A DNA stretch of 33,420 bases from a virus, in the UHGV virus genome UHGV-0152658; one strand, written 5' to 3'. Every line of letters starts with the position of its first letter. Position 1 is the first letter of the stretch. Position numbers and translations under genes: made by a program. This document shows positions 1 to 33,370 of the stretch, piece after piece. Under the pieces are notes generated by a model, which saw only the letters and a list, made by a program, of their open reading frames with translations, did not search any database and was not told the DNA's origin.

Positions 1-32
1 TACACAGTGCAGTGTTTATTCTGTTGTTAGTG

Positions 33-61
33 CCAAAAATAAAGGCCGACTATGCGGCCTT
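33..61 (-). terminator. Intrinsic terminator (tL1-like) ending the N-proximal part of the leftward operon
   Basis: 7-bp stem aaggccg (42-48) / cggcctt (55-61) with 6-nt loop; on the minus strand it is followed by TTTATTTTT (33-41). Overlaps the stop codon of the 107-aa ORF. Confidence 0.6.
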
Positions 62-373
62 ATCTACATTCCTGAACCAAACGCAGATCGGACCGTCTTC
101 TGTATCGTGAATCGAACCGACAAACCATCCTTCTCCATCTGGCATGCTTGGCTCCCATCCACTGATGTTTGGATTCCCATCTTCAAAATACGCGTCAATT
201 ACCGTTTGATTGTTGTCGTTTTCCATTTCAACAATTGATGATTCAATGCCATGCTGCTTGCAGAAAGATCTGAACTCATCAGCTGAAATTGCCTCTCTAT
301 CCCCAAACAGGTTGGCGTATTCTGGGTGCGTCCAGTAGCCATCCTCGCTTCGCTCTACTACTAATGCTTCCAT
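50..373 (-). CDS. Hypothetical, strongly acidic early protein (107 aa), first gene downstream of N
   Basis: ORF with ATG at 373-371 preceded by GAGGTGA Shine-Dalgarno that overlaps the N stop codon; about 23 Asp/Glu versus about 6 Lys/Arg; no family recognised. Confidence 0.6.
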   Translation of the reverse strand: MEALVVERSEDGYWTHPEYANLFGDREAISADEFRSFCKQHGIESSIVEMENDNNQTVIDAYFEDGNPNISGWEPSMPDGEGWFVGSIHDTEDGPICVWFRNVDKAA

Positions 374-381
374 ATATCACC

Positions 382-708
382 TCAAATAAGTGGTTTGCTG
401 CCTAATTTCATTTTCTGGCGACCAACACAAGTCACACCCATTTCACTGCGTGGCTTGCTGTACCATGTGCGCTGATTCTTGCGCTCAATACGCTGCAGGT
501 TGCTTTCAATCTGTTCGTGGTATTCAGCCAGCACTGTAAGGTCTATAGGATTCAGTGCGCTTTCTACTCGTGATTTCGGTTTGCGATTCAGCGAGAGAAT
601 AGGGCGGTTAACTGGTTTTGCGCTTACCCCAACCAACAGGGGATTTGCTGCTTTCCATTGAGCCTGTTTCTCTGCGCGACGTTCGCGGCGGCGTGTTTGT
701 GCATCCAT
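382..708 (-). CDS. N: Antitermination protein N (lambda type)
   Basis: Translation from the ATG at 708 (MDAQTRRRERRAEKQAQWKAANPLLVGVSAKPVNRPILSLNRKPKSRVESALNPIDLTVLAEYH...) matches lambda N including the arginine-rich RNA-binding N-terminus; the 138-aa track ORF has an upstream alternative start that I reject. Confidence 0.9.
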   Translation of the reverse strand: MDAQTRRRERRAEKQAQWKAANPLLVGVSAKPVNRPILSLNRKPKSRVESALNPIDLTVLAEYHEQIESNLQRIERKNQRTWYSKPRSEMGVTCVGRQKMKLGSKPLI

Positions 709-818: not shown

Positions 819-848
819 GCCCTTCTTCAGGGCTAAATTTTTAAGAGC
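819..848 (-). promoter_or_regulatory. nutL site (boxB 819-833, boxA about 840-848)
   Basis: Plus strand gcccttcttcagggc is the reverse complement of lambda boxB GCCCTGAAGAAGGGC; adjacent ttaagagc is the reverse complement of a boxA-like GCTCTTAA. Confidence 0.8.
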
Positions 849-894
849 CTCACCTTCAATGGTGGTTAGTGCGTCCTGCTGATGGCTTAAAATT

Positions 895-1012: not shown

Positions 1013-2365
<1,353 letters not shown>

Positions 2366-3849: not shown

Positions 3850-5275
3850 TTTTTATGCGCCGCCCCATAGCATCGAGGCAGAGCAGGCGGTGATTGGTGG
3901 ATTGCTTCTGGATGATGACAGCAGTGAGCGCGTCCAGAAAGTTCTGGCGATGCTGAAGCCTGATTCATTTTACAGCCGACCACACAAAATCCTTTTCGAA
4001 GAAATAACCAGAATGCACCGGGAGCAAAAGCCAGTAGATGGCCTGACGCTTTTCGATGAACTGGAGCGCAAATCGTTAACGGTGTCTGTTGGCGGTTTTG
4101 CTTATATCGCTGAGATCGCAAAGAACACGCCAAGCGCCGCAAACATCGTTGCCTATGCAATGCAGGTTCGCGAAACCGCAATGGAACGCTACGCCATCAA
4201 CCGCATGACTGAAGCGACGGAATTGCTCTATTCCCGCAACGGAATGACTGCAACGCAGAAGTACGAAGCTATTCAGGCGATTTTCACGCAACTGACAGAC
4301 CATGCAAAAACCGGATCGCGTCGCGGCCTTCGCTCATTTGGTGAGGTCATGGAAGACTGGGTTAGCGACCTTGAGAAGCGATTTGACCCGTCAGGCGAAC
4401 AACGAGGAATGAGCACAGGGATCCCATCGCTGGACAGGATGCTGTCACCGAAAGGTCTGGTGAAAGGCTCTCTGTTTGTCATTGGCGCTCGCCCTAAGAT
4501 GGGGAAAACGACGCTATACAGCCAGATGGCAATCAACTGCGCAGTGCATGAGAAAAAGCCCGCTCTGATGTTCAGCCTTGAAATGCCCGGTGACCAGATA
4601 CTGGAAAAACTGGTAGGACAGAAGTCAGGTGTTAACCCGAATATTTTTTACCTTCCGGCGACAAATGACGCTGATGACGGCTATCAGGGTGATTACGATG
4701 GTGACTTCAACAGGGCGATCGAAACAGCCAATCGCTTGAGTGAAATCGACCTGCTTTACATCGACGACACGCCGGGATTATCTCTGGCTCAAATCGTCAG
4801 CGAAAGTCGTCGAATCAAGCGAGAAAAAGGATGTGTTGGCATGATTCTGGTCGATTACCTGACACTAATGACCGCTGAGAAGGCCGATCGCAACGACCTT
4901 GCTTACGGCATGATCACCAAAGGACTGAAGAACCTTGCCAAAGAGCTTGATTGTGTTGTTGTGCTTCTGACACAGCTTAACCGCGCACTGGAAAGCCGAA
5001 CCAATAAACGCCCATTACCAAGTGACTCCCGAGATACAGGGCAGATTGAACAGGATTGCGATTATTGGGTTGGGATCCATCGTGAAGGTGCTTTTGATGA
5101 CAGTGTTCCACCTGGTGAAACCGAACTAATCCTTCGTCTCAATCGTCATGGCAATACCGGCACGGTGTATTGCATTCAGGCAAATGGCGCTATTTATGAC
5201 ACAGACCAACAGTCTGCTGAAATGCGCCGCCGTGAACGCGAGGAACCGCAGTCCAAGAAGAAAGGAGGATTCTGA
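3839..5275 (+). CDS. Replicative DNA helicase, DnaB family (P22 gene 12-like)
   Basis: Walker A GARPKMGKTT, N-terminal DnaB-like domain (HSIEAEQAVIGGLLLD); ATG at 3839 overlaps the end of the O-like gene. Confidence 0.88.
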   Translation: MTDNFYAPPHSIEAEQAVIGGLLLDDDSSERVQKVLAMLKPDSFYSRPHKILFEEITRMHREQKPVDGLTLFDELERKSLTVSVGGFAYIAEIAKNTPSAANIVAYAMQVRETAMERYAINRMTEATELLYSRNGMTATQKYEAIQAIFTQLTDHAKTGSRRGLRSFGEVMEDWVSDLEKRFDPSGEQRGMSTGIPSLDRMLSPKGLVKGSLFVIGARPKMGKTTLYSQMAINCAVHEKKPALMFSLEMPGDQILEKLVGQKSGVNPNIFYLPATNDADDGYQGDYDGDFNRAIETANRLSEIDLLYIDDTPGLSLAQIVSESRRIKREKGCVGMILVDYLTLMTAEKADRNDLAYGMITKGLKNLAKELDCVVVLLTQLNRALESRTNKRPLPSDSRDTGQIEQDCDYWVGIHREGAFDDSVPPGETELILRLNRHGNTGTVYCIQANGAIYDTDQQSAEMRRREREEPQSKKKGGF

Positions 5276-5679
5276 TGACCATCTACATCACCGAGCTAAT
5301 AACAGGCCTGCTGGTAATCGCAGGTCTTTTTATTTTTGGGGGGGATGGAAGTGTGGCTGACTGGCAAATTCCAATCATCATTCTTGCCGGAGCTTCGCTG
5401 GTTGCTGGCTTTATCCTGCTGAAAAAGCATAAAGACCGTGATCAAAAAGTCGAAGTTCTCTATGGGTATCCAGCGAACAGCACAACATGGCTGACCATTT
5501 ACCACTACCGAAAATCAGGCCGCTGGGTATTCGAATGGGATGATCTGTTCGCTGAAAAGCGACCAAAGTCATGGGGAGACATCAGCGAATGCATGATGTT
5601 TGAAGAAAGAAAATCCGGCGCAACCCGAGAAGAGTTTAACGAAGCGTGGGCGCGATTAAGTGAGAGAGGGTATTTGTGA
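5275..5679 (+). CDS. Hypothetical membrane protein (134 aa, two predicted N-terminal TM helices)
   Basis: ATG 5275 after AAAGGAGGA; hydrophobic stretches ITELITGLLVIAGLFIFGG and IPIIILAGASLVAGFILL; TGATG overlap with helicase stop. Confidence 0.6.
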   Translation: MTIYITELITGLLVIAGLFIFGGDGSVADWQIPIIILAGASLVAGFILLKKHKDRDQKVEVLYGYPANSTTWLTIYHYRKSGRWVFEWDDLFAEKRPKSWGDISECMMFEERKSGATREEFNEAWARLSERGYL

Positions 5680-5876
5680 GCAAGTACGAAAAATTAGATC
5701 AAAACATTCTTTCAATGCTGAGTGAAAGACCAACACCTGTTTTTGATATCTGGCTTAAATGGCGGAGCAATGGAATGTATATCGAAACCATCGATCGTCG
5801 TATGCAATACCTGAGAAAGAAAGGGCTTGTTGCAAATGTGCGTGGGAAGGGTTGGGTGAAAATTAACCTGTCATAA
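5676..5876 (+). CDS. Hypothetical small protein (66 aa)
   Basis: GTG start overlapping the upstream stop (GTGA), purine-rich Shine-Dalgarno upstream; no family recognised. Confidence 0.45.
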   Translation: MSKYEKLDQNILSMLSERPTPVFDIWLKWRSNGMYIETIDRRMQYLRKKGLVANVRGKGWVKINLS

Positions 5877-28711: not shown

Positions 28712-30133
28712 CTACTTGAATGTAACGATATAAATCCCAGAATCTTTTTGCAGTTTGTAATTCCTGCCATCTTCAATCAATTCTACATTCTTACCATCTG
28801 ATTTAGCAATTTCTGCATTCATTCCTGAGTACCAGAAATAAGCATTCATAAACCATTTAGAAGTCAGGTTAAATTTCACAATATTTTTTAGGATTGGATA
28901 ATCAAGATAGATCTGCTTAAGATAATGAGGAAGGTTAGGCTCATTTCTTATATCAATCTTAACTAACCCAGAACGTTTATCCATGCTGTCAATAGATGCA
29001 ATAACTGATTCTAACTTCCTGATTTTATATTCAGACTCGTATTTGAAAGCATTCACATAAATAGATGCCATTGCTACCGAAATGAATAAATAAAATGCAG
29101 TTATCAAATATACAGCATATCTTACCTTAGAATCTTTTATCTTTAGCAAAGGTGTAAGTGCGACCATTAGAAATGCAGGGAAAGACATCAGCACTCTGGA
29201 TGATATTATAGCATTGCTAAACATTGCGTAGGGAATAAACAACAATAAGAATGAAATTGGCAATGAGACGGCAAATAACAATGAATCAAGGTATCTTCCA
29301 CTTGTGAAAGATTTAACTGCTTGCCACAGACACACTGCGTAAGAAATAACAACGAGCACTGAAACAACTGCTAGTTGAGTCGTCGATAACGAAGTTAACA
29401 ATGAAAATATATAGTTAATATTAGATAAGAACTCGCTAATTCCATCACGATTTAAGTGAACTATTGTCGTGTGGTTGTCAACGTATACATCTGTAGAAAG
29501 CAATGTAGTTGTAGTCTGAACAATGGCAAAGGTGACAACGAATATCACAACGCTGCTTAACACGTATCTCATATTTTCCTTTTGCGTTTTACTATTAAGC
29601 AAGTTGTTTAAAGACTGAAGAATGACAAGGCAGACAAATACAGCAAACGAAGTTTGATAGAAAAAGCTTGCTGCAGTGAGAAGCAGCAGTCTGAAAATAA
29701 AATTGAATTTATGTTCATACCTAACGGCCGCCAGCATAGCCAAAGAAAACGATGCCGACATTCCAATAACATCAATGTGGTATGACATGTTTTCAATATA
29801 AAATGGAGAACAAATTAAAACACATATCGTGATTGTTTTTGCAATCCATTGCTTGCCAAACACAGATTCAGCAAAGTAATTGCAGGCTACTATCATGATA
29901 ACAAATGAAACAACAAGGTTCAGTTGATAAACATCTGGCGAGATCAACTTTCCTGATGAATTCAAAAGGATGTAATACAACTCGGTAAGAAATCGACCTT
30001 GAGAAGCTAGCCCGATATATCCGTATGAATATCTTGCTACATCATCCACAAAAGGAGGCATATAAAAGAATGGAAGGAAGAAGCAAGCGACTATAAGTAT
30101 CGCTGGCATTTCATATCGCGTTAATTTAAACAT
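28712..30133 (-). CDS. Serotype-specific O-antigen glucosyltransferase (GtrC-type polytopic membrane protein)
   Basis: 473-aa protein with many hydrophobic helices, AT-rich, last gene of a gtrA-gtrB operon; specificity cannot be read from sequence. Confidence 0.75.
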
Positions 30134-31049
30134 CTTTAGACCCCTTAATTATATATCTTGGTCTTGATTTTACTTCGACATATATTCTGCCAATGTATTC
30201 CCCAAGCACACCAATACCTATCAACTGAATTCCCCCCAGGAAAAGAATTGAAACCAATAGCGATGGATAACCACGGACAGCATTACCGAACACCAATGTG
30301 TCGAAAATCATCCACACCCCGTAAAGGAACGAGAGTCCCGCAACAAGTAGACCGATGTAAGTCCACACGCGCAAGGGGAAGGTCGAGAAACTTGTAATCC
30401 CCTCAAGCGCCAGGTTCCAGAGCTTCCAGCCATTGAACTTTGTGCTTCCGGCAACGCGTTCAGCACGGATGTATTCAACAACATCCGTCTTACCGCCAAC
30501 CCAAGATAAAACGCCTTTCATAAACAGGTTACGCTCTGGCAGTAGTTTGATATTTTCTACCATCTCTCGTGACATAAGACGGAAGTCACCAACGTTCTCT
30601 TCAATCTGCGGATTACTAATTTTGTTGTGAAGTTTATAAAACCACTCAGCAGTTTTACGCTTTAACCTACCATCAGTTGATCTGTCAGAGCGCTTTGCCA
30701 GCACCATATCAGCACCTGCCTGCCACTTTTCAATAAGATGAGGAATGACCTCAATCGGGTCTTGCAGGTCAACATCAATTGGAATCACGGCATCGCCAGT
30801 TGCATGGTCTAACCCTGCAAACAATGCTGGTTCTTTACCAAAGTTGCGTGTAAATGACAGCGGAACAACTAGCGGATCAGAAACAGCCAGAGCATTAATA
30901 ATTGACTCCGTAGCGTCTTTGCTTCCGTCATTTATGAAAACAATTTCCACTTCATATGGCTTCAACTCTTCGAATTCACGTACCGTTTTATAAAAAATTG
31001 GTATCGCTTCTTCTTCATTGAAGACAGGAACTACAAGAGATATCTTCAT
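30126..31049 (-). CDS. gtrB: Bactoprenol glucosyltransferase GtrB (GT2 family)
   Basis: N-terminal GT2 signature ([11 protein letters not shown]...FINDGSKD...DVDLQDP) and C-terminal TM helices; 307 aa. Confidence 0.9.
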
Positions 31050-31408
31050 TTCGCATCCCTAAAGACAATGAACTTTGAATAGACGAAACCGCACACCAGG
31101 CTGATGGCGGAAAAGGTGACGAGAGTGATAATTGGAGGAAGTGAACATCTATCAGCAGCCCATCCAACAGTTGCACTCAGTGTTCCCATGAACCCGACAA
31201 ATAACATGTAGCGCATCGTTGTAGTCGATGCTTTGAATGTGAATTTTGCATTCGCGAAGAAGCTAAAACTCACAGCCACAACGAAACCTGCGAAGTTTGC
31301 CAGAGCCTGATTGGTATGCGCGGCATAGATACATACACCAAAAACCACCCAGTGTATAAGTGTGTTCAGCACACCAATCGAGGTGTACTTTGCAAATAGC
31401 TTTAACAT
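31046..31408 (-). CDS. gtrA: GtrA flippase-like small membrane protein
   Basis: 120 aa, four predicted TM helices, GtrA-like; ATGA overlap with gtrB. Confidence 0.88.
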
Positions 31409-31995: not shown

Positions 31996-32203
31996 TAGGT
32001 TAAATCCGTTATTTCTGCTGTCTGCCAGAGTATCAAATATCACCGTGCTAATCAGCTTTAGCGCGACAATTTGGCAGCGAGTGGCAACAGTTCATGTCAG
32101 ATAAAAATGAGATAGTAGTCACATTTTCTTGCACTTTATTCCAGCCAGTTCATAAGTATTTCCGTAAAAAGAACAGCTATTTGAAACACCTGAGGGTTTG
32201 CTG

Positions 32204-33370
32204 TTGAAACGCCGTCTTATTATTGCTGCTTCTTTGTTCGTTTTTAATTTATCGTCTGGTTTTGCGGCGGAAAACATTCCTTTTTCACCTCAACCTCCAG
32301 AGATTCATGCCGGGTCCTGGGTATTGATGGATTACACCACCGGTCAGATTCTCACCGCGGGTAATGAGCATCAACAGCGCAATCCCGCCAGCCTGACAAA
32401 GCTGATGACGGGCTATGTCGTGGATCGCGCTATCGATAGTCATCGCATTAAGCCAGACGATATTGTCACCGTGGGGCGTGATGCGTGGGCGAAAGATAAT
32501 CCGGTGTTTGTCGGTTCTTCACTGATGTTTTTGAAAGAGGGCGATCGCGTATCGGTACGTGATTTAAGCCGTGGTTTAATTGTGGATTCCGGAAATGACG
32601 CTTGTGTTGCTCTGGCTGACTATATTGCCGGTGGGCAACGGCAGTTTGTTGAAATGATGAACAACTATGCCGAGAAGCTGCATCTCAAGGATACGCATTT
32701 TGAAACAGTGCATGGTCTGGATGCACCTGGCCAGCATAGCTCGGCTTATGATTTAGCCGTGCTTTCTCGCGCTATCATCCACGGCGAGCCCGAGTTTTAT
32801 CATATGTACAGTGAGAAAAGCCTCACCTGGAACGGTATCACCCAGCAAAACCGTAACGGGTTATTGTGGGATAAAACCATGAATGTTGACGGCCTGAAAA
32901 CGGGCCATACTTCTGGTGCCGGGTTTAATCTTATTGCTTCGGCTGTAGACGGGCAGCGTCGCCTCATTGCAGTGGTAATGGGGGCTGACAGTGCAAAAGG
33001 TCGTGAGGAAGAGGCAAGAAAATTACTGCGTTGGGGGCAACAAAACTTTACTACGGTGCAAATTTTGCACCGTGGGAAAAAGGTCGGTACGGAACGCATC
33101 TGGTATGGCGATAAAGAAAATATCGCCCTGGGAACGGAACAAGAGTTCTGGATGGTGCTACCGAAAGCCGAAATTCCACATATCAAAGCCAAATATACCC
33201 TTGATGGTAAAGAACTCACCGCGCCAATTAGCGCCCATCAGCGGGTAGGGGAAATTGAACTTTACGACCGTGATAAACAGGTGGCGCACTGGCCGCTGGT
33301 TACCCTGGAATCTGTCGGGGAAGGCAGCATGTTTTCCCGCCTGAGTGATTATTTCCACCATAAGGCCTGA
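32204..33370 (+). CDS. dacD: D-alanyl-D-alanine carboxypeptidase DacD (PBP6b), host gene
   Basis: Signal peptide, SxxK active-site motif (ASLTKLMT), SGN and KTG motifs; start set at TTG 32204 to give 388 aa (track ORF begins at TTG 32198). Confidence 0.88.
   Translation: MKRRLIIAASLFVFNLSSGFAAENIPFSPQPPEIHAGSWVLMDYTTGQILTAGNEHQQRNPASLTKLMTGYVVDRAIDSHRIKPDDIVTVGRDAWAKDNPVFVGSSLMFLKEGDRVSVRDLSRGLIVDSGNDACVALADYIAGGQRQFVEMMNNYAEKLHLKDTHFETVHGLDAPGQHSSAYDLAVLSRAIIHGEPEFYHMYSEKSLTWNGITQQNRNGLLWDKTMNVDGLKTGHTSGAGFNLIASAVDGQRRLIAVVMGADSAKGREEEARKLLRWGQQNFTTVQILHRGKKVGTERIWYGDKENIALGTEQEFWMVLPKAEIPHIKAKYTLDGKELTAPISAHQRVGEIELYDRDKQVAHWPLVTLESVGEGSMFSRLSDYFHHKA

Follow-up and report, generated by a model that had tools for sequence, protein, structure and literature searches.

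A strongly acidic early gene of a P22-like prophage is an exchangeable cassette in the ral slot and a candidate for anti-defence

The coding sequence of a strongly acidic protein of 107 residues, encoded directly after the antitermination gene N in a P22-like prophage, is an exchangeable cassette that lies between two conserved linkers, and this is the main new finding of the present analysis. The gene represents a new family within the known class of lambdoid early accessory cassettes, and because sister phages carry ral in the same exchangeable slot, it can reasonably be regarded, from its sequence setting, as a good anti-defence candidate.

The acidic gene and its setting in the pL operon

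The window, i.e., the whole stretch of 33,420 nucleotides that was analysed, is a P22-like prophage, recognized by a P22 portal and the head-binding domain of a tailspike. Its right end carries an O-antigen glucosylation operon (gtrA, a gtrB-like gene and GtrII; 31408..28712, minus strand) and is abutted by a host gene for a D-alanyl-D-alanine carboxypeptidase of the PBP5/6 type (32198..33370); no tRNA gene was found at this right prophage–host junction. At the other end of the window the minus strand reads, in order, nutL, N, the acidic ORF and a terminator-like hairpin, with the following features:

819..849, minus strand: nutL, composed of a boxA-like element GGCTCTTA (849..842) and boxB GCCCTGAAGAAGGGC (833..819)
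382..708, minus strand: lambda-type antitermination gene N, 108 aa from the ATG at 708 (Pfam N36, 1.5e-26; phrog_271)
377..383, minus strand: Shine–Dalgarno sequence GAGGTGA of the acidic ORF, overlapping the N stop codon TGA at 384..382 (from the sequence)
373..371, minus strand: start codon ATG of the 107-aa acidic ORF (from the sequence)
50..373, minus strand: the 107-aa acidic ORF, a member of phrog_1372 and an exchangeable cassette (ORF call, PHROG match, dN/dS, blastn boundaries)
52..50, minus strand: stop codon TAG of the acidic ORF (from the sequence)
33..61, minus strand: terminator-like hairpin with U-tract, also the downstream cassette linker (stem 61..42, tail 41..35)

The original prediction covered positions 33..373, which correspond to the ORF together with the hairpin, and described a very acidic protein with about four times as many Asp and Glu as Lys and Arg residues. 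The counts are 23 and 6 (3.8-fold), with a pI of 4.09 (~4.1) and a net charge of about −17. The ribosome-binding site had likewise been placed across the N stop, and GAGGTGA (383..377) does share bases with the TGA at 384..382, the spacer between N and the ORF being 8 nt. A compositional outlier was also considered and rejected, the GC content of the ORF being 0.463 versus 0.473 for the window, and no further copy of the family was found in the window.

The ORF is a genuine gene under selective constraint. It goes beyond chance because it matches phrog_1372 (5.6e-44, over residues 1–106), because a profile built from 29 relatives retrieves 1009 cluster representatives (50% identity) at E<1e-3, 501 of them at E<1e-10, because the identical protein recurs in 579 blocks of an assembly collection, and because dN/dS is 0.089 against a copy at 94% identity. 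Among remoter copies, dS is saturated and dN ranges from 0.1 to 0.45.

The boxB element is identical to the NutL site annotated in lambda, and nutL marks where the pL transcript bearing N and the acidic ORF begins. No promoter-like site was found in front of the ORF, which is on the pL strand and should therefore be repressed in a lysogen. It had been predicted to lie in the segment of the pL transcript made ahead of N-dependent antitermination, and indeed the hairpin is the sole terminator-like site on the minus strand from nutL to the edge of the window. Since the ORF is upstream of this first terminator-like element, it should be expressed without N-dependent read-through. The acidic ORF would thus be one of the immediate-early accessory genes in the pL operon of a P22-like or lambdoid prophage, co-transcribed with N and probably translationally coupled to it, and its product would appear in the first minutes after infection or induction with no need for N. 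The window ends 49 nt past the ORF stop, and the downstream context described below was taken from related loci.

Cassette exchange in the ral slot

The upstream linker consists of the 27 nt CAGCAAACCACTTATTTGAGGTGAKAT that precede the ATG (window about 374..400) and includes the Shine–Dalgarno sequence; the downstream linker is the hairpin followed by TTTATTTTTGGCAYAAACAACAGA after the stop (window 20–61). Both are constant in 42 ORF-bearing loci whose outer contexts differ. The boundaries were defined by blastn comparison of the window with five sister phages (Sf101, HK544, mEp043, Louie and Dewey): homology spans N, ends at 367–371, i.e., at the start codon (ATGGAAG), and resumes at about 60–47, i.e., in the hairpin. 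Between these points HK544 and Sf101 carry orf28 and ral, mEp043 an ORF of 51 aa, Louie one of 62 aa and Dewey one of 156 aa. Sf101 is otherwise 98% identical to the window over the cI–N region, and its gp35, which served as a positive control, matches Pfam Ral at 4.1e-47. The earlier suggestion that the gene lies in the neighbourhood of ral can thus be made more precise, as it fills the very slot, with the same linkers, that holds orf28 and ral in HK544 and Sf101.

The identical protein was found between N and cIII (cIII–kil) in 10 of 10 different lambdoid prophage mosaics, which differ in repressor, N type, and replication and recombination genes, and in which none or one small ORF precedes the acidic ORF and up to three variable ORFs follow it. 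Among 5426 complete E. coli genomes, the acidic gene is present in 41 and ral in 885, and ral occurs in one of 45 ORF-bearing loci. This one locus (L103) has both genes, by which strict mutual exclusion was rejected; the acidic ORF and ral are mostly, not strictly, alternatives.

According to the modular theory of lambdoid phage evolution, cassettes are bounded by short conserved linker sequences. The arrangement resembles the moron or mosaic cassettes of lambdoid phages in that a single ORF between a linker containing a ribosome-binding site and a linker with a hairpin or terminator is swapped among otherwise unrelated backbones. Classical morons, however, have their own promoter and are expressed from the prophage, whereas the acidic ORF cassette has no promoter-like site and depends on pL.

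One of the recombination joints can be placed inside the coding sequence, since the C-terminal Lys-Ala-Ala-stop of both the acidic ORF and Ral is encoded in the shared 5′ arm and loop of the hairpin (window 42–66; about 1281–1300 of the lambda locus, L007). Remoter family members have different C-terminal ends (e.g., RKKQ).

A variety of single-gene cassettes bounded by these linkers after N was also seen across a wider set of loci (L001, L002, L008–L017, L018, L019, L084–L086 and L087–L115). In some loci the upstream linker motif TTATTTGAGG recurs directly after the hairpin, which suggests tandem cassette arrays that are shuffled by linker recombination.

The hairpin at the downstream linker

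The hairpin AAGGCCG-CATAGT-CGGCCTT (61..42) is followed by TATTTTT (41..35). In the RNA it forms a 7-bp stem with 5 GC pairs, a 6-nt loop CAUAGU and a tail UAUUUUU, and thus has the layout of an intrinsic terminator, a GC-rich hairpin directly before a U-tract; its folding energy is −10.5 kcal/mol (z −3.3), which was equalled by 1 of 200 shuffled sequences. The TAG of the ORF sits in the loop, so that the overlap of the terminator with the ORF's own stop, as originally proposed, is confirmed.

The description of this element as a tL1-like terminator holds for the hairpin and U-tract architecture, but not for its identity. The hairpin and about 45 nt downstream of it align with lambda directly behind ral, at about 34,080–34,095, and no alignment was found in the lambda interval between N and ral, where tL1 orthology would have placed it. 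Because its homology is to the hairpin after ral, it is not lambda tL1; it is probably lambda tL2a (cf. Luk & Szybalski 1983). Phages of this type lack the sieB interval; this makes the hairpin the first element after N that resembles a terminator, and it may take the role of tL1. Its U-tract is interrupted (UAUUUUU), and the fold of an 81-nt RNA (window 20–100, minus strand) favors an alternative in which the 5′ arm pairs with upstream coding sequence (minimum free energy −24 kcal/mol). A ribosome terminating at the stop codon in the loop would cover the 5′ arm of the hairpin, and termination at this predicted site might therefore depend on the position of the ribosome.

Conservation and predicted fold

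The acidity is not a peculiarity of one ORF, as it is kept over 179 instances of the domain, with a median net charge of −15, a median pI of 4.2 and a median ratio of acidic (D+E) to basic (K+R) residues of 3.1. In contrast, the positions conserved best are not acidic; these are R8, G12, W14, H16, P17, W/F37, W73, P75, P78, G80, G82, W83, F84, S87, I88, H89, D90, T91, E92, D93, G94, P95, C97, W99 and R101, which can be summarized in two family motifs, V-x-R-D-x-x-G-x-W-T-H-P and W-x-P-x-x-P-x-G-x-G-W-F-x-x-S-I-H-D-T-E-D-G-P-x-C-x-W-x-R. With its core of aromatic, Gly and Pro residues and a single HDTEDGP hairpin, this pattern looks like a specific globular binding domain and not like an extended, DNA-like array of carboxylates.

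AlphaFold2 predicted the structure with a pLDDT of 86.9 from an alignment of 29 sequences, and with a pLDDT of 96.1 and a pTM of 0.86 from 84 sequences. In the model, ~100 residues form a compact, very acidic alpha+beta domain with helices at 17–23, 31–40 and 56–63 and strands at 43–49, 84–91 and 94–102, the HDTEDG turn joining the last two strands. No match to this fold was found among solved structures, including anti-defence proteins of known structure. Searches with the sequence gave no match in Pfam at E<=1, none in PADLOC or NCBIfam and none in the PDB, whether a single sequence or a profile was used, and no transmembrane or signal features were detected. An immunity domain of the SUKH (SMI1/KNR4) type, which had been raised by sub-threshold matches in one relative, was rejected because none of 84 members matches it and there is no structural match.

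Comparison with Ocr, ArdA and Ral had been proposed as a check of the original idea, and here the outcome was negative: profile and structure searches revealed no similarity in sequence or fold to Ocr, ArdA or Ral/Lar. The protein has neither sequence homology to Ocr nor the Ocr-like fold, an elongated helical dimer that mimics bent B-DNA; it belongs to neither the sequence family nor the fold of ArdA; it does not match Pfam Ral (PF11058) or Lar_restr_allev (PF14354) at E<=1; and it resembles the sponges of the Tad1, Tad2 and Acb2 type neither in fold nor in sequence. What it has in common with Ocr (T7 gp0.3) and ArdA is that it is small, strongly acidic, encoded by a mobile element and, as predicted, made first after DNA entry; the immediate-early position (a timing read from the sequence alone) and the strong negative charge are as expected of a protein of the Ocr type. 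Its location in the pL operon between N and cIII is, on the other hand, that of Ral- and Lar-type genes. The likeness to lambda Ral lies in the operon, the linker slot shared in sister phages and the small size of the protein, but Ral has 66 aa, is not similarly acidic and has a Cys-rich N-terminal part, whereas the acidic ORF encodes 107 aa with a net charge of −17; furthermore, lambda ral lies behind the sieB interval and the acidic ORF directly after N. Lar of Rac is functionally analogous to Ral, both providing restriction alleviation for type I restriction-modification.

Spread of the family, fusions and neighbours

The ORF product is 99% identical to mEp213_045. The profile of phrog_1372 has 194 positions and is thus longer than the ORF, since many members bear extra modules; phrog_20322 and the C-terminal part of phrog_8593 are related. 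Relatives were found by tblastn in phages of Burkholderia, Pseudomonas, Vibrio, Erwinia, Klebsiella and Yersinia (PY54), in the P1-like phage D6 and in 2035 plasmid records (1763 conjugative), mostly from Klebsiella. In P1-like elements the homologue lies in a variable block between ref and ppp. All family members in the databases are named “hypothetical” or “prophage protein”, no member has a Pfam domain over the family region, which is without a Pfam model, and a literature search by motif, accessions and phage names found no paper on the family.

Of the top 150 family representatives, about half are fusion proteins, in which the family domain may stand at either end, and the fusion partners are highly diverse, most being uncharacterised phage modules. 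Recognizable partners are Lar_restr_allev in three proteins (e.g., P0184), an Rv2179c-like 3′–5′ exonuclease in two (e.g., P0084), a Tad2-like Thoeris anti-defence domain in one (P0083), DHH/DHHA1 in one (P0063) and KTSC (P0131). Two recurrent fusion modules without a Pfam match were also noted (P0088, P0089, P0103, P0126, P0177, P0051, P0095, P0091 and others; P0100, P0144, P0165): the first, of ~100 aa, has the pattern AERxRQ...EG...HDD...WPW...KP...LVKAGALILAEIERLDR and is C-terminal in the profiles of many large PHROGs, and the second is Cys-rich (C-x-x-C-G-C...A-C...C-x-W...C-S-x-C).

A census of immediate neighbours in 50 genomes of Enterobacterales and Pseudomonas gave a heterogeneous picture, with TraU (6), N, zinc fingers of the DksA/TraR type, three orphan DNA methyltransferases, DndB, Lar and Abc2; no neighbour recurred, except TraU in one plasmid subfamily.

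Plasmid homologues and the DUF2726 pairing

Klebsiella IncFII(K) and E. coli IncF plasmids have, in the finO–repA interval, a DUF2726 gene (PD-(D/E)XK-type) whose end shares 4 nt with the start of the homologue; this arrangement, and that of a Citrobacter plasmid described below, were read from three plasmid loci (L028, 8345–9300; L032, 3300–4291; L030, 1398–1964 and 3276–4291). DUF2726 belongs to the PD-(D/E)XK superfamily (PMC3424549). The two genes have stayed adjacent in two F-like plasmid lineages although they have diverged to 68% and 57% identity. In a Citrobacter plasmid, a different upstream gene overlaps the homologue, and the DUF2726 gene is elsewhere, separated from it. DUF2726 was rejected as a general partner, since a jackhmmer search of all ORFs from 51 chromosomal loci and the plasmid loci found it with F-like plasmids only, with none of the 51 chromosomal loci having it within 4 kb and none of the phage loci examined having it either; it is now a lead specific to one subfamily.

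One subfamily of homologues lies inside F-type tra operons, directly upstream of traU or, in a Serratia plasmid, after traV (L029, L034, L041, L043, L046, L053 and L063, at about 3980–5300; L031). Several plasmid homologues are thus found within the tra operon or at the far end of it. The usual place of plasmid anti-defence genes is the leading region, so that the tra-operon site is unusual for such a gene.

Possible functions

The best guess at the function, tentative and held at somewhat less than even confidence, is that of an anti-defence binding protein. The product would bind and neutralise, stoichiometrically, a protein, from the host or a rival element, that works on nucleic acid, and would do so through a specific protein–protein interface in which the HDTEDGP hairpin and the invariant Trp/His/Arg core are central, rather than by Ocr-style mimicry of B-DNA. 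We infer that the protein is a binder and not an enzyme, that its target is a host or rival protein that handles nucleic acid and that the outcome is counter-defence. Several lines point in this direction: the exchange of the cassette with ral in the same slot, with ral in 1 of 45 ORF loci; the fusions to Lar-like and Tad2-like domains; an acidity conserved across 179 domain instances; a real and constrained gene in the order nutL, N, ORF and hairpin; the identical protein in at least 10 lambdoid mosaics, always between N and cIII; neighbours that include orphan DNA methyltransferases, DndB, Lar and Abc2; and the DUF2726 pair kept adjacent in two F-like plasmid lineages. On the other side, every member of the family is named “hypothetical protein” and has no PADLOC, Pfam, NCBIfam or fold match, there is no conserved genomic partner (DUF2726 being in 0 of 51 chromosomal loci), and several plasmid homologues sit within the tra operon (before traU, after traV) or at the far end of it. 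Among partners that are mostly uncharacterised modules, fusions to Lar and Tad2 make up a small minority, and the sharing of a slot with ral could reflect mere recombination at shared linkers.

The foremost alternative, unlikely though deserving serious consideration, is a host-takeover or developmental early protein outside defence, which might, for example, modulate the choice between lysis and lysogeny, the stress physiology of the host, or its replication or division. Non-defence roles of this sort are known in the same operon from Kil, Ea8.5, Orf63 and Ea22. In many temperate phages and P1-like elements the ORF lies in strings of small accessory early genes, most of its neighbours and fusion partners are modules of the Ead/Ea22 type or other uncharacterised ones, and its presence in tra operons fits a general host interaction just as well as anti-defence. 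Against such a role stand the alternation of the cassette with ral and the Lar-like and Tad2-like fusions, and the extreme, conserved acidity is typical of inhibitors of nucleic-acid-binding proteins.

Two narrower proposals concern the kind of target. A DNA mimic of the Ocr or ArdA kind that blocks type I restriction-modification and substitutes for Ral, which would be a special case of anti-defence, is rather improbable. A net charge of about −17 on 107 residues, which is a family-wide property, the immediate-early position and the occupation of a slot from which ral is nearly absent (1 of 45 loci) would fit such a mimic, but the pattern of conserved residues resembles a globular binding domain, and no similarity to Ocr or ArdA was found in sequence or fold. 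Slightly less probable again is inhibition, in the manner of an immunity protein, of a DUF2726-kind PD-(D/E)XK nuclease; the plasmid copies would then be the cognate partners of the adjacent nuclease-like genes, and the phage copies would be orphan inhibitors that shield incoming DNA from such nucleases. A small acidic protein is the typical format of a nuclease inhibitor, and the plasmid homologue begins 4 nt before the DUF2726 stop, with the pair still adjacent at 68% and 57% identity; yet the pairing is confined to related plasmid backbones, the Citrobacter plasmid is arranged differently, and DUF2726 was found in 0 of 51 chromosomal loci (4 kb) and in none of the phage loci examined.

There is little to recommend a “sponge” for small-molecule or nucleotide signals, or a tiny enzyme acting on defence second messengers. 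The near-invariant His16, Arg8 and Arg101, several Trp residues and H89-D-T-E-D could form a pocket for a ligand or metal, and a Tad2-like sponge, a DHH/DHHA1 phosphoesterase and Rv2179c-like exonucleases are among the fusion partners of some relatives, but these fusions are rare (4 of 75), there is no fold match to Tad1, Tad2, Acb2 or nucleotide-binding folds, and the strong negative charge disfavours the binding of anionic nucleotides. A prophage-encoded defence or superinfection-exclusion gene like sieB is the least credible of all, for although the lambda N–ral interval holds sieB and the N–cIII slot mixes defence with counter-defence genes, a gene on the pL strand, 8 nt after N and without a promoter-like site, should be repressed in the lysogen, and its product has no transmembrane or signal features and no PADLOC match.

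The reading as an anti-defence binding protein can be extended, more doubtfully, to the whole family, which would then be a counter-defence protein of a new fold class in temperate phages, phage-plasmids and conjugative plasmids, i.e., an immediate-early, Ral-replacing inhibitor that binds and disables an immune effector of host or plasmid directed at nucleic acid (e.g., type I restriction-modification or a DUF2726-kind nuclease), with the linker slot as a dedicated anti-defence site. If the counter-defence function is true, the anti-defence repertoire would gain a new and widespread family of about 1000 clusters (50% identity), with a fold unseen before and with members in phages of enterobacteria, Pseudomonas, Burkholderia and Vibrio and in about 2000 sequenced plasmids, among them the epidemic IncFII(K) plasmids of Klebsiella. 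Further inhibitors could then be sought in the linker-bounded slot after N, since at least four other uncharacterised cassettes occupy it. Whatever the function, the annotation of lambdoid prophages benefits from the cassette architecture and from the alternation of ral with the acidic ORF.

Further observations in the pL region

Two observations were made beside the main line of the analysis. The pL operon of mEp213 (L001) contains two different N genes in tandem (3953–4285 and 5438–5710), with small cassettes and a hairpin linker copy downstream of each. In the window itself, an ORF of 134 aa (1016–1417, minus strand; 158 aa if an upstream ATG is used, which extends it to 1489) lies between the repressor gene and pL/N, where lambda has rexAB, and shares bases with the 3′ end of cI. 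A match was found to phrog_2651 and none to Pfam, and the N-terminus is hydrophobic and signal-peptide-like; the ORF could be a conversion or exclusion gene that is expressed from the prophage.
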